A stretch of DNA of 19,748 nucleotides, taken from a virus (Duplodnaviria > Heunggongvirae > Uroviricota > Caudoviricetes). The DNA lies in the IMG/VR virus record IMGVR_UViG_647533161_000006, one strand, 5' to 3'. The translations under genes and the position numbers were made by a program. The number at the start of each line of letters is the position of its first letter. Within the stretch, counting starts at the first letter, position 1. Shown piece after piece: positions 2,597 to 16,714 of this stretch. Under the pieces are notes generated by a model, which worked only from the letters and a program-made list of their open reading frames with translations, searched no databases and had not been told where the DNA came from.

Positions 2597-2751
2597 ACAG
2601 CCCCTCGTTTATTATTTATCTCCTCAGCCAGCCGCTGGGCTTTCAGTGGATTTTGGATAACAGAAAGGCCGGGAAATACCCAGCCTCGCTTTGTAACGGA
2701 GTAGACGAAAGTGATCGCGCCTACCCGGATATTATCGTGAGGATGCGTCAT
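2569..2751 (-). CDS. Small early-left protein, 60 aa (lambda orf60a-like)
   Basis: ATG at 2751-2749 overlaps the exo stop (2748-2750) in an ATGA arrangement, as for orf60a in lambda; the ORF-track entry extends 2 codons upstream. Confidence 0.55.
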
Positions 2752-3357
2752 CGCCATTGCTCCCCAAATACAAAACCAATTTCAGCCAGTGCCTCGTCCA
2801 TTTTTTCGATGAACTCCGGCACCATCTCGTCAAAACTCGCCATGTACTTTTCATCCCGCTCAACCACGACATAATGCAGTCCTTCACGCTTCATACGCGG
2901 GTCATAGTTGGCAAAGTACCAGGCATCTTTTCGTGTCACCCACATGCTGTACTGCACCTGGGCCATGTAAGCCGACTTTATGGCCTCGAAACCACCGAGC
3001 CGGAACTTCATGAAATCCCGGGAGGTAAACGGGCATTTCAGCTCAAGGCCATTGCCGTCACTGCATAAACCATCGGGAGAGCAGGCGGTGCGCATACTTT
3101 CGTCGCGATAGATGATCGGGGATTCAGTAACATTCACGCCGGAAGTGAATTCAAACAGAGTTCTGGCGTCGTTCTCGTACTGTTTTCCCCAGGCCAGCGC
3201 CTTAGCATTAACTTCCGGAGCCACACCGGTGCAAACCTCAGCCAGCAGGGTGTGGAAGTAGGACATTTTCATGTCAGGCCACTTCTTTCCTGAGCGGGGC
3301 TTTGCTATCACGTTGTGAACTTGTGAAGCGGTGATGACGCCGAGCCGTAATTTGTGC
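2748..3357 (-). CDS. exo: Lambda exonuclease (Red alpha), C-terminal about 202 codons; 5' end lost in the N run
   Basis: Translation (…[41 protein letters not shown]…GFVFGEQWR) is near-identical to lambda Exo as I recall it. Stop at 2748-2750. Confidence 0.92.
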
Positions 3358-3926
3358 NNNNNNNNNNNNNNNNNNNNNNNNNNNNNNNNNNNNNNNNNNN
3401 NNNNNNNNNNNNNNNNNNNNNNNNNNNNNNNNNNNNNNNNNNNNNNNNNNNNNNNNNNNNNNNNNNNNNNNNNNNNNNNNNNNNNNNNNNNNNNNNNNNN
3501 NNNNNNNNNNNNNNNNNNNNNNNNNNNNNNNNNNNNNNNNNNNNNNNNNNNNNNNNNNNNNNNNNNNNNNNNNNNNNNNNNNNNNNNNNNNNNNNNNNNN
3601 NNNNNNNNNNNNNNNNNNNNNNNNNNNNNNNNNNNNNNNNNNNNNNNNNNNNNNNNNNNNNNNNNNNNNNNNNNNNNNNNNNNNNNNNNNNNNNNNNNNN
3701 NNNNNNNNNNNNNNNNNNNNNNNNNNNNNNNNNNNNNNNNNNNNNNNNNNNNNNNNNNNNNNNNNNNNNNNNNNNNNNNNNNNNNNNNNNNNNNNNNNNN
3801 NNNNNNNNNNNNNNNNNNNNNNNNNNNNNNNNNNNNNNNNNNNNNNNNNNNNNNNNNNNNNNNNNNNNNNNNNNNNNNNNNNNNNNNNNNNNNNNNNNNN
3901 NNNNNNNNNNNNNNNNNNNNNNNNNN
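3358..3926. other. Run of 569 N (assembly gap or masked sequence)
   Basis: Directly visible in the sequence; interrupts the 5' end of exo and most of bet. Confidence 1.
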
Positions 3927-4039
3927 CACCCTTTAAATGCCGTCTGGCGAAGAGTGGTGATCAGTTCCTGTGGGTCGACAGAATCCATGCCGACACGTTC
4001 AGCCAGCTTCCCTGCCAGCGTTGCGAGTGCTGTACTCAT
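3927..4039 (-). CDS. bet: Lambda Bet (Red beta) ssDNA-annealing protein, N-terminal 37 codons only; remainder in the N run
   Basis: ATG at 4039-4037; MSTALATLAGKLAERVGMDSVDPQELITTLRQTAFKG matches the lambda Bet N-terminus. Confidence 0.88.
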
Positions 4040-5393: not shown

Positions 5394-5975
5394 ATGAACA
5401 ACTCATGGTGGCAGGAACTAATGCATTTTTTCCTGCAAGGAATGACACTTAAACAGTTGATTCATATGCTAATCATCCTGATCATATTGATTATTGTTAT
5501 GCCTGTAAGCGTAAAAGAATGGATAAACCTGCATAATCCAGAAATCCTTCCTCATTACTGGATGTATTACATCCTGTTGTTTTGCGTTAGCTATGTGCTT
5601 AACGGCGTTGTTAATTCCGCTTATCACGCTGTGACTGTAAGAATTGAGATATTCGCTGCTCAGAAGCGCAAATCTAAAGAAGAGAAATACGTGCAAGATT
5701 TGTTTGATTCGTTAACTCTTGGAGAAAGAGCGTATTTGGCATTCGCTGTAGCCGCTAATAACCAGCTAAAGACAGAAAAGGGAAGCCCTGAAGCAATCTC
5801 ATTGCTCGAAAAAGGGCTTCTTATTCGGGTACCTTCTGCTACTGGATATCCTGAAATCGACCGTTTTGTTATCCCGGAACGCTATAGAAATGAGTGCTAC
5901 ATTAGGTTTGCTGGGAAGAAAGACAGTCTTATGGATGAACTTATCGCTCAGGATAAGCATGGCAAAAACAAGTAA
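5394..5975 (+). CDS. sieB: Superinfection exclusion protein B (SieB)-like inner-membrane protein, 193 aa as drawn
   Basis: Plus-strand ORF convergent with N, with a strongly hydrophobic N-terminal region (LIHMLIILIILIIVMPVSV…YWMYYILLFCVSYVLNGVV); recognised as SieB-like from memory of lambda SieB. The true start may be an internal Met. Confidence 0.7.
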   Translation: MNNSWWQELMHFFLQGMTLKQLIHMLIILIILIIVMPVSVKEWINLHNPEILPHYWMYYILLFCVSYVLNGVVNSAYHAVTVRIEIFAAQKRKSKEEKYVQDLFDSLTLGERAYLAFAVAANNQLKTEKGSPEAISLLEKGLLIRVPSATGYPEIDRFVIPERYRNECYIRFAGKKDSLMDELIAQDKHGKNK

Positions 5976-5991
5976 TTAGCAAATGAATTTA

Positions 5992-6300
5992 TCATCTCGC
6001 CGTCAGTTGTTTTGATTTCCGGTAGCCTGCCGCGTAAATAGCTACGTTTGGCAGGCAAACACTTCCACTGCATTCATCTACTTTCTTGCAGCGAAGGCTT
6101 CCGAGTGATATTGCTTTTTCAGAAAGGCTTAACCGCTTTCTCGGGTCTTCCTGAACAGGTTCCTCACTGTCTGTGCCGAAGATCGAATCGATGATGTTGC
6201 AGATGGAATCACGCTCGATGGCCAGCTTTCTGCGCCGCTCATGACGGCGAGTTTTGGCATTTCCTGCAAATGTTGATTTTCCGTACACGATTACCGTCAT
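5992..6300 (-). CDS. N: N-type transcription antiterminator, P22 gene 24-like, 102 aa from ATG at 6300
   Basis: Arginine-rich motif GNAKTRRHERRRKLAIER near the N-terminus (MTVIVYGKSTFAGNAKTRRHERRRKLAIERD…) matches the P22-type N ARM. The ORF-track entry starts 28 codons upstream at a non-ATG start. Confidence 0.82.
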   Translation of the reverse strand: MTVIVYGKSTFAGNAKTRRHERRRKLAIERDSICNIIDSIFGTDSEEPVQEDPRKRLSLSEKAISLGSLRCKKVDECSGSVCLPNVAIYAAGYRKSKQLTAR

Positions 6301-6742: not shown

Positions 6743-7642
6743 TTATTTGATTATTTCTTTTATAAAGACTTCTTTCGGTTGGTATTTTTTATCTGATGAT
6801 TTGAGCTGGTACGTTATTGTTATATCAGCACGTACAGAAAATTTACCTGCAAAATCTGATGGGTTTACGTTGGGGCCAAGAACCATATTTACTCTTCGAT
6901 CTATTAATCCAGGGATAACAGCAGCCCAACCTTTCTCTGGATTGTCGAGGTCTAATGCACGGATTTCAACATCAACATCAAAATGATCCTGAGTATATGA
7001 CTCTGGTGTGAAGACAACTTCAGTTGGGGCTTTTTTAATGGTTTCAGCGGGAATGGTCACTGTACCACCCCCTGTACCTATGACCATCGTAGATCCTTCG
7101 TCTGCCCTAGCTGGGGCAAGCGTCTTAATGGAACTTTTGGCAAGAGTCTTCTTATTGGTTACCGTGCTTTCTATGATTGCTTGAAGACGGTCAGGTGAAA
7201 TATTAGCCTCACCGGCACCAATATTGATGATTGTATTGTTATTTGCTTCAAAGTGGGAGGTGTTGCTTGGAGCCATAGCCTTAGTTGCTAGAACTAAGCC
7301 ATATCCAACCAGACCAATAACAACAGCACCAACGAGAGCGTTTCTCATTTTCCCATTTCCGATCTTTGCATGAGCGCCAGCAAGAAACTTGTCCATTTCT
7401 TCTTGGCTACCAAAGAGGAGTTTAATAACAATATCTTCATAAAGGCTTCCTGCTTCTAATCGCGCAACATGCACCGATATATCAAGGATATTAGCCCCTG
7501 TCAGTTCCTGCAAAACACCTTCTGATTGTTTTGCGATGGCCTCCCACCCTTGAAGGGAGGTAATCACATCTTTGATGCTTACAGGTTCTTTAGTTGAATA
7601 ATATATGTTTTCGGTAAAGGTTAAAGATAATTCTTGGGACAT
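6743..7642 (-). CDS. Uncharacterised single-pass membrane protein, 299 aa, in the rexAB-equivalent slot
   Basis: Long ATG-initiated ORF (ATG 7642-7640) with a GAGGG SD upstream, co-oriented with and downstream of cI. One hydrophobic segment (NALVGAVVIGLVGYGLVLATKAMA) separates an N-terminal ~100-aa domain from a Gly/Thr-rich ~175-aa C-terminal domain. Visibly AT-rich compared with flanking phage genes; no family recognised. Confidence 0.7.
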   Translation of the reverse strand: MSQELSLTFTENIYYSTKEPVSIKDVITSLQGWEAIAKQSEGVLQELTGANILDISVHVARLEAGSLYEDIVIKLLFGSQEEMDKFLAGAHAKIGNGKMRNALVGAVVIGLVGYGLVLATKAMAPSNTSHFEANNNTIINIGAGEANISPDRLQAIIESTVTNKKTLAKSSIKTLAPARADEGSTMVIGTGGGTVTIPAETIKKAPTEVVFTPESYTQDHFDVDVEIRALDLDNPEKGWAAVIPGLIDRRVNMVLGPNVNPSDFAGKFSVRADITITYQLKSSDKKYQPKEVFIKEIIK

Positions 7643-7771: not shown

Positions 7772-8479
7772 TCATGAACTTTTCAGCCATTCCCTGGCCT
7801 CGATGTCATCTAGGTGGCGAGATTGCTTCAGAATACCAGCTACATACTCCACCTTTGCTACTTGATGATAAGGCAACGTTATTGGCCTGTGGTCTTGGTT
7901 GATGCTTGTAAATTGGTATTCTCCGTCTCTGTCATAGCCAAGAACCTTGATCATGTTGTGCCCTTCAATGGTTCTGACAAACACCTCATCACCTGGGAAT
8001 ACTTTGGTGTTAGGCTCAATGAGTACATATTCTCCTGATTTTATTCTGGGCCACATGCTGTCTCCTTTTACACGAAGACCAAAGGCATCTGGATCATCGC
8101 TATAAATCTTGAGCCACCCATCGCGCTCTTCGGTCATCTCGATGGCACCATCAACACCAAGAATTGCCTCACCAACCACGCGCACTAACCCTTTTTTTAA
8201 TTTGCCAACAATTGAAAAAGTATCTTCATCATTCGCTCCATTTAACGAAGTGCCGTGCTGAAGCCAAACAACATCAACGTTTAGAAATTTCGCAAGCGCA
8301 TTCATTTTTTCCTGGCGTGGTAAAGACTCAGCATTAAACCATTTGCTAACGCCTTTGGACGAAAGAGAAAGGGCACGGGCTATGGCCATTCCCCTACCAT
8401 GTTCATCAAGACCAGCTTCTTTACAGGCTTGCGCTAGCCGCTGGGCGAATTCTTTGCGCACTTTTTCATTCTGAACCAT
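7772..8479 (-). CDS. cI: CI-like prophage repressor (N-terminal HTH, C-terminal S24 LexA-like autopeptidase), 235 aa
   Basis: C-terminal domain contains GDSMWP (Ser nucleophile motif of S24 peptidases) and a downstream Lys; N-terminal region is HTH-like. Divergent from cro across a short operator region. Not lambda CI or P22 C2 by sequence. Confidence 0.85.
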   Translation of the reverse strand: MVQNEKVRKEFAQRLAQACKEAGLDEHGRGMAIARALSLSSKGVSKWFNAESLPRQEKMNALAKFLNVDVVWLQHGTSLNGANDEDTFSIVGKLKKGLVRVVGEAILGVDGAIEMTEERDGWLKIYSDDPDAFGLRVKGDSMWPRIKSGEYVLIEPNTKVFPGDEVFVRTIEGHNMIKVLGYDRDGEYQFTSINQDHRPITLPYHQVAKVEYVAGILKQSRHLDDIEAREWLKSS

Positions 8480-8557
8480 GAGTACGATACTAAAGCACTT
8501 GCAAAAACTTTCAGTTCAACCATAATGCGTACTGAAAGTACGAAAAAGGACATTCCT
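8480..8557. promoter_or_regulatory. oR / pR / pRM divergent control region
   Basis: 78-bp cI-cro intergenic with a plus-strand -35 TTGCAA (8499-8504), 16-bp spacer, -10 CATAAT (8521-8526). Dyads CGTACTGAAAGTACG (8528-8542) and AACTTTCAGTT (8506-8516) overlap the promoter as candidate operators. pRM not resolved. Confidence 0.5.
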
Positions 8558-11132: not shown

Positions 11133-11165
11133 CAGGCCTGCTGGTAATCGCAGGCCTTTTTATTT
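11133..11165 (+). terminator. Intrinsic terminator (tR2-equivalent) between ren and ninB
   Basis: AGGCCTGC-TGGTAATC-GCAGGCCT hairpin followed by TTTTTATTT on the plus strand. Confidence 0.65.
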
Positions 11166-11181: not shown

Positions 11182-11622
11182 ATGAAAAAACTAACCTTTG
11201 AAATTCGATCTCCAGCACATCAGCAAAACGCTATTCACGCAGTACAGCAAATCCTTCCAGACCCAACCAAACCAATCGTAGTAACCATTCAGGAACGCAA
11301 CCGCAGCTTAGACCAAAACAGGAAGCTATGGGCCTGCTTAGGTGACGTCTCTCGTCAGGTTGAATGGCATGGTCGCTGGCTGGATGCAGAAAGCTGGAAG
11401 TGTGTGTTTACCGCAGCATTAAAGCAGCAGGATGTTGTTCCTAACCTTGCCGGGAATGGCTTTGTGGTAATAGGCCAGTCAACCAGCAGGATGCGTGTAG
11501 GCGAATTTGCGGAGCTATTAGAGCTTATACAGGCATTCGGTACAGAGCGTGGCGTTAAGTGGTCAGACGAAGCGAGACTGGCTCTGGAGTGGAAAGCGAG
11601 ATGGGGAGATCGGGCTGCATGA
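11182..11622 (+). CDS. ninB: NinB (Orf family recombination mediator), 146 aa
   Basis: From ATG 11182 (MKKLTFEIRSPAHQQNAIHAVQQILPDP…) the translation matches lambda NinB; the ORF-track start is 6 codons upstream. Confidence 0.85.
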   Translation: MKKLTFEIRSPAHQQNAIHAVQQILPDPTKPIVVTIQERNRSLDQNRKLWACLGDVSRQVEWHGRWLDAESWKCVFTAALKQQDVVPNLAGNGFVVIGQSTSRMRVGEFAELLELIQAFGTERGVKWSDEARLALEWKARWGDRAA

Positions 11623-12146
11623 CTATCAAATCAAATACGCCAGCACACGACAAGGACTGCTGGCAAACGCCGCTTTGGCTTTTTGATGCACTGGATATTG
11701 AGTTTGGATTCTGGCTGGATTCGGCAGCGAGCGACAAAAATGCTCTGTGTGCTCACTGGCTAACTGAGGCCGACGACGCGCTCAATTCTGAGTGGGTAAG
11801 CCACGGTGCAATCTGGAATAACCCACCGTACAGCAATATCAGGCCGTGGGTGGAAAAAGCCGCTGAGCAGTGCATACAACAGCGACAGACGGTAGTTATG
11901 CTTGTGCCAGAGGATATGTCAGTCGGATGGTTCAGCAAGGCTCTGGAGAGTGTCGACGAAGTTCGCATTATCACTGATGGACGGATTAATTTTATCGAAC
12001 CATCGACAGGGCTGGAGAAGAAGGGAAACAGCAAAGGCTCCATGCTGCTGATTTGGCGACCGTTCATCAGTCCTCGACGGATGTTTACTACCGTATCCAA
12101 AGCGGCATTGATGGCGATCGGGCAGGGCGTCAGGAGGGCGGCATGA
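11619..12146 (+). CDS. Phage DNA N6-adenine methyltransferase (Dam-family, orphan), about 175 aa
   Basis: ATG 11619 overlaps the ninB stop (ATGA). Translation contains the NPPY catalytic motif (…[15 protein letters not shown]…) characteristic of N6-adenine methyltransferases. Occupies the nin position where lambda has ninC/ninD. No adjacent restriction gene. Confidence 0.8.
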
Positions 12147-12319
12147 GGCGACAGCGACGAAGTTTCACCGACATCATCTGCGAAAACTGCAAATACCTTC
12201 CAACGAAACGCTCCAGAAATAAACGCAAGCCAATCCCAAAAGAATCTGACGTAAAAACCTTCAATTACACAGCTCACCTGTGGGATATCCGGTGGCTAAG
12301 ATATCGTGCGAGGAAATGA
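12143..12319 (+). CDS. ninE: NinE, 58 aa
   Basis: Internal ATG 12143 overlapping the methyltransferase stop gives [58 protein letters not shown], recognised as NinE-like. Confidence 0.7.
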
Positions 12320-12663: not shown

Positions 12664-12850
12664 CCCATCTCAATCCCTTCAATACCTGAAAGGAAGCATA
12701 GAGCGGGCTTCAATGTGCACAGAGTGGATTCTATCTAGGTTTAGCGCATACAGAAGATTGCCGGTAAAGGGCATGCCAAGCAAGTCGATGCTGCATATGC
12801 AAAAGAATGCGCGCGGGAAGGTATGGCGAGAACGCAGGTTATCTGGCTGA
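12656..12850 (+). CDS. Small nin-region ORF, 64 aa (possible NinF-like N-terminus; may be a fusion or decayed gene)
   Basis: ATG-initiated ORF overlapping the previous gene's end; only the first ~18 residues look NinF-like to me (from memory, uncertain). Terminates 20 nt before rusA in a different frame from the remnant listed next. Confidence 0.35.
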
Positions 12851-12873
12851 AAGAGGGGGTAATTAAGGCGTGA
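12745..12873 (+). pseudogene. Start-less 42-codon reading frame running into the rusA start (possible 3' remnant of a ybcO-like gene)
   Basis: Hand translation of the frame ending at TGA 12871-12873: [42 protein letters not shown]. It has an upstream in-frame stop at 12742-12744 and no plausible start; the attribution to ybcO/DUF1364 is from memory and tentative. Confidence 0.3.
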
Positions 12874-13369: not shown

Positions 13370-13454
13370 AGTCAGAGATAACAATCAACTAATACTGTTT
13401 TGCTGATTTTTGCTTGTAATTGGCGTTCTGGTCTGATTTTTGTGGAGTAAGTTG

Positions 13455-13832
13455 ATGCGTGATATTCAGATGGTTCTTGAGCGTTGGGGAGCGTGGGCGG
13501 CTAATAATCATGAAGATGTGACCTGGTCGTCCATTGCCGCCGGTTTTAAGGGATTAATTCCTTCAAAAGTAAAATCTCGCCCGCAATGTTGTGACGATGA
13601 CGCGATGATCATTTGCGGGTGCATGGCCCGTCTGAAAAATAACAACAGCGATTTGCATGATTTGTTAGTGGACTATTATGTCGGCGGCATGACTTTTATG
13701 GCGCTTGCGCGTAAGCATGGTAGATCTGATTGTTGGATTGGCAGGATGCTCCAAAAAGCTGAGGGCGTAGTGGAGGGCATGCTGATGGTGTTGGATCTCA
13801 GATTGGAGATGGATGCTGATTGTTTGAGATAA
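13455..13832 (+). CDS. Q: Late-gene antiterminator Q (phage 82 / DLP12 QuuD type), 125 aa
   Basis: From ATG 13455 (GGAG SD 8 nt upstream): [76 protein letters not shown]… recognised as 82-type Q. The ORF-track entry starts at an upstream TTG. Confidence 0.82.
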
Positions 13833-13987: not shown

Positions 13988-14512
13988 TTATTGTTTGACC
14001 CATAATAGTTCATTGACATTGAATCCCAATTTTTGAGCAGTACGCACATAGTCTGCTTTTACATTATCTGGAATAGTTGGAGTCCGTGCCAGAATCCATA
14101 GGTATTCTCTGTTCGGACCACTGACAAGAGCATACTTATACTCATCATCCAGTTTGATTACATTATAGCCACCATAGAAGGGGCCAAAAAACGAAACCTT
14201 CAACGCTGCAGTTGTATTATCTCCTGTAAAGTATGCTTTACCTTCGCTCTCGCTCCATTTGTTTTTCGTTGGGTCATATCCACGATTAAGTACACTAATC
14301 CCTCCGTCGTTCCGTTTCCCATAAGTGGCGCTGACCTGTTCCAGACCACGTTCAAATCGGTTCTCAAGCCGAGCTATTTCATACCATTTTCCGAGGTAGC
14401 GGTTGGTGTCAAAATTTGTAATCGGCTGCACACCTTTAGGTGGTGTCGGGGCCTTACATGCTATCAGAGTGAAAGAGAGTGCAATGCCAGTCAACACAGG
14501 CCATAACTTCAT
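13988..14512 (-). CDS. Blc-like outer-membrane lipocalin lipoprotein, 174 aa (moron)
   Basis: Signal peptide with lipobox (…FTLIAC) then lipocalin-type sequence (NFDTNRYLGKWYEIARLENRFERGLEQV…KVSFFGPFYGGYNVI…YLWILARTP) closely resembling bacterial lipocalin Blc; opposite strand to the late operon. Confidence 0.85.
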   Translation of the reverse strand: MKLWPVLTGIALSFTLIACKAPTPPKGVQPITNFDTNRYLGKWYEIARLENRFERGLEQVSATYGKRNDGGISVLNRGYDPTKNKWSESEGKAYFTGDNTTAALKVSFFGPFYGGYNVIKLDDEYKYALVSGPNREYLWILARTPTIPDNVKADYVRTAQKLGFNVNELLWVKQ

Positions 14513-14704
14513 AATATATCCTGTACTTTTGATAGTTGAGAGTAAGTATTAAAGATAGATGATTACTACCGATCACCTAAAGAACTTTCCTACTATATTA
14601 GGAATAGTCCATAACAAAAAAATTGTCAGTGATGACGGCAGAAAGGCAGTTTAGGTCGTGTACTACACTGTTAACCTGTTAATGAATTAGTCAAGGGGTA
14701 GGCA

Positions 14705-15664
14705 ATGATAAAAAAACCTGTCGTTGGGATCAGTGGTTGTTTGGCCGGTTCTTCTGTCCGTTTTGATGGTGGTCACAAAAGAGCTAGCTTTTTAATGGAC
14801 AAATTACTGGAATGGGTAACATTCAAACCAGTATGTCCGGAAATGGCTATAGGGCTTCCAGTTCCGCGTCCTGCTCTACGTCTTGTTCGCTCGGCGCAAG
14901 GAAATATACGGATGTGTTTCAGCCACGACCAGAATGAGGATGTTACAGAGAAAATGACAGAGTTTAGTCGTTCTTATCTTGACAAATTAAAGGATGTATC
15001 GGGATTTGTGGTTTGTGCAAAATCTCCTAGCTGTGGTATGGAACGCGTGCGTGTATATGATGAAAATGGTAATCGTGGTCGTAAAGATGGAGTGGGACTA
15101 TTTACGAGCACGTTGATGGAAAGGTTTTCCTGGCTACCGGTTGAAGAGGATGGGCGACTACATGATCCAGTGCTTCGTGAAAACTTTGTTGAAAGAGTAT
15201 TTGCTTTACATGAGCTCAATCATCTTTATAAAGCGAAATTATCAAGAAGGGAATTATTAGCTTTTCATAGCCGTTATAAGCTTCAGTTGTTGGCGCATAG
15301 CCAGGCCGGTTATAAAGAGATGGGGCCATTTGTGGCTGCAATACATGAGTGGGCAGACCTTGAATCATACTTTGAGGTGTATCGTGAGAAGCTGATGGCG
15401 ATTCTCAGAAAACCTGCATCACGTAAAAATCACACGAATGTGCTGATGCATATACAGGGATATTTTAGTAACTGCTTAAATACACGTCAGCGTAAAGAGT
15501 TGAGCGATGTTATACTTAACTATCGAGCTGGCACGCTACCTCTTCTTGCGCCATTAACTTTGCTGAAGCATTACTTGGCAGAGTATCCTGATGATTATTT
15601 GCTTATACAGAATTACTTCCACCCCTATCCTGATGAACTGGCTCTAAGACTCTTGGTGAACTAG
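14705..15664 (+). CDS. DUF523/DUF1722-like two-domain protein (TudS/YbgA-like), 319 aa (moron)
   Basis: ATG 14705 with AAGGGGTAGG SD. N-terminal half has Cys-containing motifs (GISGCLAGSSVRFDGG, PVCPE, CAKSPSCGME) reminiscent of DUF523/TudS-type Fe-S proteins; C-terminal half resembles DUF1722. Family call is from memory, not a search. Confidence 0.6.
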   Translation: MIKKPVVGISGCLAGSSVRFDGGHKRASFLMDKLLEWVTFKPVCPEMAIGLPVPRPALRLVRSAQGNIRMCFSHDQNEDVTEKMTEFSRSYLDKLKDVSGFVVCAKSPSCGMERVRVYDENGNRGRKDGVGLFTSTLMERFSWLPVEEDGRLHDPVLRENFVERVFALHELNHLYKAKLSRRELLAFHSRYKLQLLAHSQAGYKEMGPFVAAIHEWADLESYFEVYREKLMAILRKPASRKNHTNVLMHIQGYFSNCLNTRQRKELSDVILNYRAGTLPLLAPLTLLKHYLAEYPDDYLLIQNYFHPYPDELALRLLVN

Positions 15665-15982
15665 GCGTTTGGAATGCACCAACAAGATGATTTTCTCCTT
15701 AGAGAATGTTTACAATCGTAAAAACTTCACTATGATATCTATAGTTGTACAGTTTGTAAAAAAATTCGGTTCATGCTTAAGGTAATGTTAATATGTTAAT
15801 TAATGATTAATAATCAAGCAAGCCAAAAATAGTTCTGTTTAATCTAGTATTACATAAATATTTTAAAGAAAATATCAAAGTTCATGATGATATAATGAGA
15901 TTTTTCTCATTGAAAATATGGCAATTTTAATATTTCCACCTATACTTACTTAACTCAAATCTAATTATGTCAGGTGGATGGT

Positions 15983-16714
15983 ATGCCATGCATATGTTCT
16001 ATCATTTTGGTTTTGAACTCGTTTGATATCCGGCTTGGTAAAGAAAAAATCTCTCTAAAAAAAGGAAGTGTTGTTGCTATAGAATACAATTTAAAAGTTT
16101 TCTTTTCTTCAAATAAAGATAATATAATGATCGTGGATATTGAAGAGAAAACAGTTAATGACTTCTTTAAAAACAATACACTCTCACCTTTTTCTGTAAG
16201 AAGATTTTATTCAGCATACTTGATAGTAAACTGTACAGACTATTCATTGTTAAAGAACTTGATAGGTTGCTTGAATTGTGATGGTGAAACTACGGCTGTA
16301 GTTAAAAATTCAATATTATTTGCATGTCTTGCTATTTTATCCTCGGAAAAAATGTTTCAGAGTTTTTTGTTTGGGTGTCTTAATAGTTTAGGAAGCAAAG
16401 TTAAGGCTATTATTCACTCGGACATATCTGCAGCATGGAGACTTTGTGATATTTCTTCAAGACTATGTCTGAGTGAAAGTTTGTTAAAAAGAAAACTAAA
16501 ACACGAAGGCTTATCATTTAGCAAATTAATTCTTGAAGAACGAATGGTGATGGCTGAAAGGTTATTAAGCTACAATTTCTATCCTGTTGGGAAAGTTGCT
16601 AAAATATGTGGTTATGAAAGCGCGTCATATTTTATAAGTGTTTTCAGAAGATATTTTGGTGTTCCCCCCCATGAATATTCATCAAGATTTTTTTTAGAAA
16701 AAGGCAAGATGTAA
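15983..16714 (+). CDS. AraC/XylS-family transcriptional regulator, about 243 aa (moron; very AT-rich)
   Basis: C-terminal AraC-type HTH signature (…GKVAKICGYESASYFISVFRRYFGVPPHEY…). In-frame ATG 15983 with AGGTGG SD 7 nt upstream (the ORF-track entry starts at GTG 15974). Preceded by ~300 bp of extremely AT-rich DNA. Confidence 0.75.
   Translation: MPCICSIILVLNSFDIRLGKEKISLKKGSVVAIEYNLKVFFSSNKDNIMIVDIEEKTVNDFFKNNTLSPFSVRRFYSAYLIVNCTDYSLLKNLIGCLNCDGETTAVVKNSILFACLAILSSEKMFQSFLFGCLNSLGSKVKAIIHSDISAAWRLCDISSRLCLSESLLKRKLKHEGLSFSKLILEERMVMAERLLSYNFYPVGKVAKICGYESASYFISVFRRYFGVPPHEYSSRFFLEKGKM

Follow-up and report, generated by a model that had tools for sequence, protein, structure and literature searches.

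The phage Dam-type N6-adenine methyltransferase gene in the nin region of a lambda-like Escherichia coli prophage

Described phage Dam enzymes and the window protein

The Dam proteins of phages T1 and HP1/HP2 are the founders of the Pfam family PF05869. They are orphan enzymes, like the protein studied here. T1 Dam is GATC-specific. It comes from a virulent phage, in which it lies outside any nin operon, whereas the gene studied here is a nin-region gene. T1 Dam (ST20, YP_003925.1) matched PF05869 with an E-value of 1.7e-70. The family also includes PamA, which is encoded by the S. aureus prophage mosaic phi11 and matched PF05869 at 5.6e-30. PamA is an orphan enzyme, and the DNA of strains carrying it becomes sensitive to DpnI, which indicates GATC methylation. 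Since its staphylococcal host lacks a Dam, the mark set by PamA is new there and has a regulatory effect, whereas in E. coli the GATC mark pre-exists.

The closest described system is M.EcoVT2Dam of phage VT2-Sakai. A passage of PMC6602927, citing PMID 11720311 (Radlinska and Bujnicki 2001), describes M.EcoVT2Dam as known to target 5'-GATC-3'. According to PMC6602927, M.EcoVT2Dam and M.EcoGV are separate genes when both are present in one Stx2 prophage, and PMC10810198 connects M.EcoGV with the phage PA8 MT-A70 enzyme. In a study of phage Phi24B, a 'dam' clone (CM2) was listed as 100% identical to NP_050531.1. The record of phage 933W itself remarks that the product is 'similar to methylases of bacteriophage HP1 and T1'.

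In this study, a gene of this type (dam) was analysed in a stretch of phage DNA of 19,748 nucleotides, referred to here as the window. Its product was identical to VT2-Sakai orf32 (NP_050531.1) at 175/175 residues, and the two genes differed by 5 synonymous nucleotides. The original VT2-Sakai record, AP000422, labels orf32 as 'dam: DNA N-6-adenine-methyltransferase', and orf32 is the sole methyltransferase annotated in that phage. VT2-Sakai orf4 (299 aa) was also considered as the published 'dam' and was rejected, being a DUF551 protein. We therefore infer, with strong support, that M.EcoVT2Dam is the orf32 product. VT2-Sakai and the window share the order ninB-dam-ninE and both ATGA overlaps. 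The proteins do not differ, but the prophage in the window is lambda-like, lies at icd and carries no stx.

The window enzyme most likely methylates adenine within GATC, setting the same mark as host Dam, with the specificity taken second-hand from the literature passages cited above. The sequence-only reading of the window had left the target motif to be found, and the literature overtakes it on this point, since the identical VT2-Sakai protein is already reported there as GATC-specific. In the PF05869 studies that were consulted, the enzymes were expressed and the DNA was then tested by DpnI/MboI-type digestion, and a relaxed specificity is compatible with such assays. In the window itself, 58 GATC sites were observed against 74 ± 7.5 expected, a mild under-representation that says little either way.

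At ≥95% identity, the dam DNA was present in 244 phage records; among 5426 complete E. coli genomes, 1566 carried it. The phage records include 933W, VT2-Sakai, Sf6, HK544, Min27 and scores of Stx1/Stx2 phages, and the same gene is present in Phi24B and HK97. At least one phage has a frameshifted pseudogene copy. The feature is thus an already known and very common gene of lambdoid prophages.

The nin-region cassette and its prophage setting

The window covers one half of a lambda-like prophage, from integrase to terminase, and this prophage is inserted next to icd. The window was approximately 100% identical over 94% of its length to induced infant-gut phages such as 'Lambda_ev110', and in 97 complete E. 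coli genomes the match covered at least 80% of the window. In the matching prophage, RefSeq gives the order int, xis, exo, bet, gam, kil, cIII, sieB, cI, cro, cII, O, P and ren. This series is followed by NinB, a 'phage N-6-adenine-methyltransferase', NinE, NinX, RusA, Q, the lysis genes and the terminase genes. The features of the dam locus are as follows.

11182..11622, plus strand: ninB/orf, recombination mediator gene (PF05772 at 2e-54, phrog_72, RefSeq annotation)
11603..11608, plus strand: Shine-Dalgarno-like GGGGAG, 10 nt 5' of the dam ATG, within the final ninB codons
11619..11622, plus strand: ATGA overlap of the ninB stop and the dam start, read from the sequence
11619..12146, plus strand: dam coding sequence, 175-aa phage N6-adenine DNA methyltransferase (PF05869/TIGR01712), equal to VT2-Sakai orf32
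12132..12137, plus strand: AGGAGG, ribosome-binding site of ninE, 5 nt 5' of the ninE ATG, inside dam
12143..12146, plus strand: ATGA overlap of the dam stop and the ninE start, read from the sequence
12143..12319, plus strand: ninE (PF05322 at 3.4e-42), followed by the NinX gene

As read from the window, the dam ORF begins with ATG at 11619, runs for 175 codons and ends with TGA at 12144-12146. The ATGA overlaps that had been claimed with ninB on the 5' side and ninE on the 3' side were both seen, at 11619-11622 and 12143-12146. The same ATGA architecture of the nin region has been described (PMC8022706). The data indicate that dam is a lambdoid nin-region cassette: its place is in the interval from the replication genes to Q, and it is packed by ATGA overlaps and stands 3' of a terminator-like hairpin.

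The neighbourhood of dam was compared among 80 IMG/VR loci encoding the identical protein. These loci were picked by protein identity and are biased to synonymous change, and they were used only for junctions and neighbours. The 5' junction of dam was GCATGAC in 80/80 loci. In 21 loci a gene unlike that of the window lay upstream, and the junction was still GCATGAC. Among 5 of these 21 loci that were inspected, 3 carried another NinB-like allele and 2 carried an unrelated 200-aa protein with HNH-like residues, which is named an HNH endonuclease in some phage records. The C-terminal tail ...ARWGDRAA, whose codons contain the GGGGAG, was kept in both NinB and the unrelated 200-aa protein. The retention of this tail despite differing upstream genes indicates a mosaic joint just 5' of the dam ribosome-binding site.

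The orthologues of Edwardsiella and Providencia (66-73% identity) occupy the same replication-to-Q interval, beside RusA, DUF968 and Lar genes. The Yersinia orthologue lies near the exo region instead. Lar restriction-alleviation genes were found close to dam in the VT2-Sakai and Providencia prophages, and this proximity is only suggestive of an anti-restriction theme. The annotation of the matching prophage lists no restriction endonuclease between integrase and terminase, and no restriction enzyme was found in the window or within 4 kb of 5 orthologue loci (Yersinia, Edwardsiella, Providencia). The best PADLOC matches of the dam protein were 'orphan methyltransferase' models. These results agree with the earlier statement that the gene has no restriction partner.

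The sequence-only reading had also proposed that the methyltransferase replaces lambda ninC/ninD. This description fits only as regards position. In one related phage contig dam is followed by a 281-aa protein that appears to resemble lambda NinC, in which case dam and ninC would not strictly exclude each other.

Family, motifs and predicted fold

The profile searches placed the dam product, over its full length, in the 'Dam' family of the phage HP1/T1 type. It matched Pfam PF05869 'Dam' with 218.4 bits and an E-value of 6.4e-65 over profile positions 1-167 of 169 (cutoff 28.1), and the equivalog TIGR01712 with 265.9 bits and 9.7e-80 over positions 1-165 of 165 (cutoff 97.05). The match to phrog_111 had an E-value of 8.6e-88. 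A search of 5.8 billion proteins recovered 265 relatives across the Enterobacterales, and 36 of these, with 59-86% identity to the window protein, were aligned for conservation. The window protein retained 44/44 invariant columns of this alignment. The invariant residues include T17-P18, L33-D34-x-A36, N68-P69-P70-Y71, P97, D99, G121-R122, F125 and W146-R147-P148. The motifs are located as follows.

11656..11672, plus strand: N-terminal motif D13-x-W15-Q16-T17-P18, with T17 and P18 invariant and D13, W15 and Q16 in at least 90% of the homologues
11709..11732, plus strand: putative SAM-binding motif I-like stretch F31-W-L-D-S-A-A-S38, N-terminal to motif IV
11820..11831, plus strand: catalytic motif IV, N68-P69-P70-Y71, invariant in the 36 homologues and aligned with the NPPY of T1 Dam and PamA

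The prediction of an N6-adenine methyltransferase with an NPPY motif was borne out, with the motif at residues 68-71 and the family profiles matched well above their cutoffs. A loss of conserved SAM-binding residues had been named as evidence against it, and none was lost, as all 44 invariant family residues of the 36-sequence alignment are kept. F31, L33, D34 and A36 are invariant in the 36 homologues and are also conserved in T1 Dam and PamA. The label of motif I for residues 31-38 is putative, because the AlphaFold model is poor there (pLDDT <50 at residues 32-52). The TP of the N-terminal motif is also present in T1 Dam and PamA. The gene was further compared among 8 natural dam alleles with 5-17 nucleotide changes. 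Codon position 3 accounted for 22 of the 28 variable sites, and the amino-acid changes numbered 0-2. This third-position bias and the few residue changes indicate that dam is under purifying selection.

T1 Dam and the window protein shared 33% identity over 158 aa (E-value 2e-26), with TP, LDxAA and NPPY aligned. With 237 aa, T1 Dam is the longer protein: it is extended by approximately 45 aa at the N-terminus and has an insertion that precedes the GRxxF motif. PamA shared 34% identity over 133 aa with the window protein, with NPPY aligned. It is shorter (141 aa) and does not have the C-terminal helix of the window protein.

The Pfam scan of the window protein at E≤0.01 returned only PF05869, with neither PF02086 nor MT-A70. 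In the PDB, the chains of E. coli Dam, T4 Dam and DpnM were not matched by phmmer (E≤1) or by the 36-sequence family profile (E≤10), and these sequence and profile searches found no methyltransferase whatever at the same thresholds. The PF05869 family thus has no solved structure detectable by sequence. Compared with the alpha-class (PF02086) enzymes E. coli Dam, T4 Dam and DpnM, the window protein shows no detectable sequence similarity, and E. coli Dam is approximately 100 residues longer. The gap from the motif I-like stretch to motif IV is only about 30 residues in the window protein, which leaves no intervening target-recognition domain, so that the order of domains is unlike that of the alpha class. 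Judged from the sequences, the GATC target shared with E. coli Dam would be a functional convergence and not a sign of family membership. The term 'Dam-family' in the earlier description is therefore apt as the name of PF05869 and as a function, and misleading as kinship with E. coli Dam, to which no similarity was found.

The predicted fold appears closest to gamma-class enzymes such as M.TaqI. The order of motifs is gamma-type, with the motif I-like stretch preceding NPPY by approximately 30 residues. Foldseek searches of the PDB with the predicted model gave weak matches only, none at E≤1e-3, and the best was the tRNA m6A enzyme TrmM. The chain stops approximately 100 residues past NPPY, and the model consists of the core strands and one terminal helix. 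On the model, the protein would be a minimal methyltransferase with no discrete C-terminal target-recognition domain, unlike gamma-class enzymes.

Other adenine methyltransferases were considered as relatives and rejected. Hia5/Hin1523 belong to a Dam-alpha-like family related to E. coli Dam. M.EcoGI/M.EcoGII are beta-class, with DPPY in the beta order, their genes occupy other phage genome positions than dam, and the substrate of M.EcoGII is any adenine. The 16S rRNA methyltransferase of phage PA8 belongs to the MT-A70 family with DPPW. The motif of the window protein is NPPY and not DPPW, and the protein has no MT-A70 Pfam match, so it was not placed in that family. M.EcoPA8orf6770P, which carries DPPW, acts on 16S rRNA with a partner and occupies another position in the phage genome than dam. 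Like dam, M.EcoGI/M.EcoGII and M.EcoGV/M.EcoPA8orf6770P are orphan and prophage-borne, and they are silent or weakly expressed in lysogens.

An ORF of 174 aa lies antisense to dam and had been judged spurious.

11753..12277, minus strand: 174-aa antisense ORF, starting inside ninE

No family match was found for this ORF in Pfam or NCBIfam. It matched phrog_37455 at 1e-119, which shows only that the same ORF was called in deposited phage genomes. The antisense open stretch comprised 180 codons in the window and 155 in 933W; in homologues with 62-66% identity it comprised 94/84 codons in Klebsiella and 137 codons in Providencia. Under the same substitutions, the antisense frame had 1-6 amino-acid changes within the overlap alone, whereas dam had 0-2 along its entire length. 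The codon-position test did not discriminate between the frames, because the antisense frame and dam share wobble positions: 15 of 21 variable sites were also third positions of the antisense frame. The gene in which the ORF begins, ninE, is absent from 933W. The counts of amino-acid changes and the loss of the open frame in homologues support the judgement that this ORF is best taken as spurious.

Expression and proposed role

Transcription terminators of the lambda nin region are well established. Two features of the window bear on the expression of dam.

5992-6300, minus strand: N gene (PF25694)
11134..11165, plus strand: intrinsic-terminator-like hairpin and T-run in a tR2-like position between ren and ninB, with its function suggested by lambda

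By analogy with lambda, the terminator-like hairpin 5' of ninB suggests that the nin operon, including dam, needs N antitermination. Transcription from pR would reach dam only after N-dependent passage through the tR2-like terminator. The gene would then be translated in series with ninB and ninE through the ATGA overlaps, with its own ribosome-binding site in the ninB tail. On this analogy, the expression of dam is most likely delayed-early and linked to lytic growth. In the Phi24B study, qPCR linked the expression of the identical dam to the lytic cycle and not to the stable lysogen. The single exception named there was CM18 and not dam (CM2), and CM2 changed significantly on induction. The enzyme would accordingly be made in lytic growth and not in the quiescent lysogen.

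We believe that dam encodes a stand-alone SAM-dependent GATC N6-adenine methyltransferase, which is made in lytic growth and tops up the methylation of phage DNA (probability about 0.75). The GATC specificity and the lytic expression come from the literature, and the biological pay-off is our own proposal. The virion DNA of lambda and P22 is reported to be under-methylated by host Dam, possibly as replication outruns Dam (PMC8022706). In view of this, a GATC methylase that a phage makes during replication would most economically serve to complete the methylation. Where phage replication outpaces host Dam, the enzyme may supply the missing GATC methylation. The progeny would then leave with every GATC site methylated, which would shield their genomes in the next host from restriction by methylation-sensitive enzymes that cut GATC. 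Full methylation would also remove the hemimethylated state used by MutH and SeqA. In the literature searched, we found no report of a dam deletion altering virion methylation, host range or burst size.

It speaks against a top-up that the host is already Dam+ and that the benefit is not obvious. The pay-off might also be recombinational. Fast and full GATC methylation would blind MutH-dependent mismatch repair and let exchanges between diverged lambdoid phages proceed. We regard this as rather improbable. If true, such exchanges would feed the mosaicism seen at the ATGA joints. In favour of this reading, dam is steadily linked to ninB/orf, or to an HNH or DUF968 Orf-like gene, with rusA nearby.

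Instead of protecting DNA, the enzyme could be an epigenetic regulator, whose GATC methylation at phage or host promoters tunes lysis-lysogeny, prophage stability or host virulence genes. The Phi24B paper reports that stable 933W lysogeny needs host Dam, which the phage Dam may supplement, and the Phi24B dam protein was picked up with antisera against lysogen cultures. The methylase activity of PamA also raises S. aureus virulence. However, dam sits 3' of a terminator in an N-dependent delayed-early operon, and the expression of the identical Phi24B gene is tied to the lytic cycle and not to the stable lysogen. E. coli GATC is already near-fully methylated, so extra Dam in a lysogen would add little, and the methylomes of strains with copies of the gene gave no additional motif. 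A regulatory role is unlikely in our view.

A broad or non-GATC specificity would give general anti-restriction cover, as with M.EcoGII, Hia5 and the Serratia phage OS31 enzyme. Prophage-borne non-specific adenine methyltransferases exist in enterobacteria, the model predicts a 175-aa core methyltransferase fold without a separate target-recognition domain, and methylation at extra sites is compatible with the DpnI/MboI digestion assays. Against this stand the family relations: M.EcoGII (beta-class) and Hia5 (related to E. coli Dam) come from other families, the window protein matches PF05869 only in Pfam, and VT2 Dam and PamA, the family members with a reported target, are both described as GATC enzymes in the passages available. 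We consider a broad specificity very improbable. It is even harder to believe that the enzyme acts primarily on RNA or needs a partner, as does the MT-A70-type enzyme of the Stx phage PA8. In that phage, a GATC 'Dam' annotation hid an rRNA methyltransferase needing a second subunit (PMC10810198), and TrmM, the best of the weak Foldseek matches, also acts on RNA. The PA8 enzyme, however, is an MT-A70 protein with DPPW, encoded by a different gene in a different operon, and PamA, of the same family as the window protein, methylates genomic DNA in vivo. A decaying passenger or mis-called ORF, with the 174-aa antisense ORF as the real product, if any, is scarcely credible either. The phrog_37455 match at 1e-119 and the frameshifted dam pseudogene would fit such a view. 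They are outweighed by the bias to synonymous change in the plus frame (0-2 amino-acid changes per 5-17 nucleotide changes) and by the presence of all invariant family residues in dam. The antisense frame is not kept in the 62-66% homologues, starts in ninE, which some phages do not have, and has no Pfam or NCBIfam match.

The reading of dam as a lytic, GATC-specific enzyme that completes the methylation of phage DNA concerns a gene that the NCBI pipeline already annotates as 'phage N-6-adenine-methyltransferase' and that more than one in four complete E. coli genomes carry. As the identical protein has, according to the cited passages, already been cloned and assigned GATC specificity, the gene carries little weight as a discovery. 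In the literature searched, no measurement was found of what a lambdoid phage gains by carrying a second GATC methylase when its host is already Dam+. The fitness benefit of such a second methylase is a question for the whole family and not for this window. The same applies to the way in which a 175-aa enzyme without a target-recognition domain recognises GATC.

Borders of the methyltransferase gene

The GCATGAC junction before dam was the same in 80 of the 80 IMG/VR loci that encode a protein identical to that of the window. In two related phage loci (L031 and L081), the ninB slot before dam, upstream of position 3001, was taken by a 200-aa protein with HNH-like residues, and the tail of ninB, ...ARWGDRAA (window 11598-11622), was also the C-terminus of this protein. 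The shared tail, together with the invariant junction, places the recombination joint just 5' of the dam ribosome-binding site. The 200-aa protein is labelled HNH endonuclease in some phage records.

On the downstream side, an ATGA overlap joins dam in another related phage locus (L062) to a 281-aa protein with the N-terminus MINVVSFSGGRTSAYLLWLMEQKR, which we take to resemble lambda NinC. If this is correct, dam and ninC are able to coexist and need not replace each other. The gene is dispensable in at least some lineages, because the copy in one Stx2 phage, Stx2a_F349 (L088 301-829, 529 nt, annotated as a pseudogene), is frameshifted.

Two GATC sites lie close to translation signals. The first (window 11608-11611) shares sequence with the Shine-Dalgarno-like element of dam, and the second (12116-12119) is just 5' of the ninE ribosome-binding site. 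Over the window as a whole, GATC was slightly less frequent than expected (58 observed vs. 74 ± 7.5 expected). Chance probably accounts for this pattern. Between ninX and rusA, the RefSeq annotation of a homologous prophage places a truncated DUF1364 pseudogene fragment (window about 12784-12873), which looks like the leftover of an earlier nin-region cassette.

The ORF antisense to dam and ninE (11753-12277, minus strand), judged spurious, matched phrog_37455 ("unknown function") over its full length (1e-119). Therefore, this family appears to have been made from antisense mis-calls in deposited phage genomes.

The exo/bet region and the rex position

Positions 3358-3929 of the window (572 nt, exo/bet region) were unmatched in an otherwise near-identical E. 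coli prophage, which carries 743 nt there instead. The arrangement here suggests a mosaic exchange of the recombinase module. Two overlapping ORFs were found here:

2748-3929, minus strand: 393-aa ORF, YqaJ exonuclease domain confined to the C-terminal half
3308-4039, minus strand: 243-aa ORF, without a Pfam match

Between N/sieB and the cI repressor, at the position of lambda rex, lies a 299-aa ORF (6743-7642, minus strand) with neither a significant Pfam match nor a PADLOC match. It is a candidate for an uncharacterised exclusion or defence gene, possibly expressed in lysogens.

Cargo and anti-restriction genes

Three cargo genes (13988-16714) follow Q (13440-13832) and precede the lysis genes:

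13988-14512, minus strand: lipocalin
14705-15664, plus strand: YbgA-like 2-thiouracil desulfurase/DUF1722 protein
15983-16714, plus strand: AraC-type HTH regulator

In Stx phages, this slot is the stx position.

Near dam, a Lar-type restriction-alleviation gene (PF14354) was present in VT2-Sakai (L002 15792-16034) and in Providencia prophages (L098), and the Providencia prophages encode another methyltransferase (PF01555 type) directly after Q (L098 coordinates for the Lar and PF01555-type observations: 5448-5633; 8212-8534). The region around dam seems to be a cluster of several anti-restriction functions.
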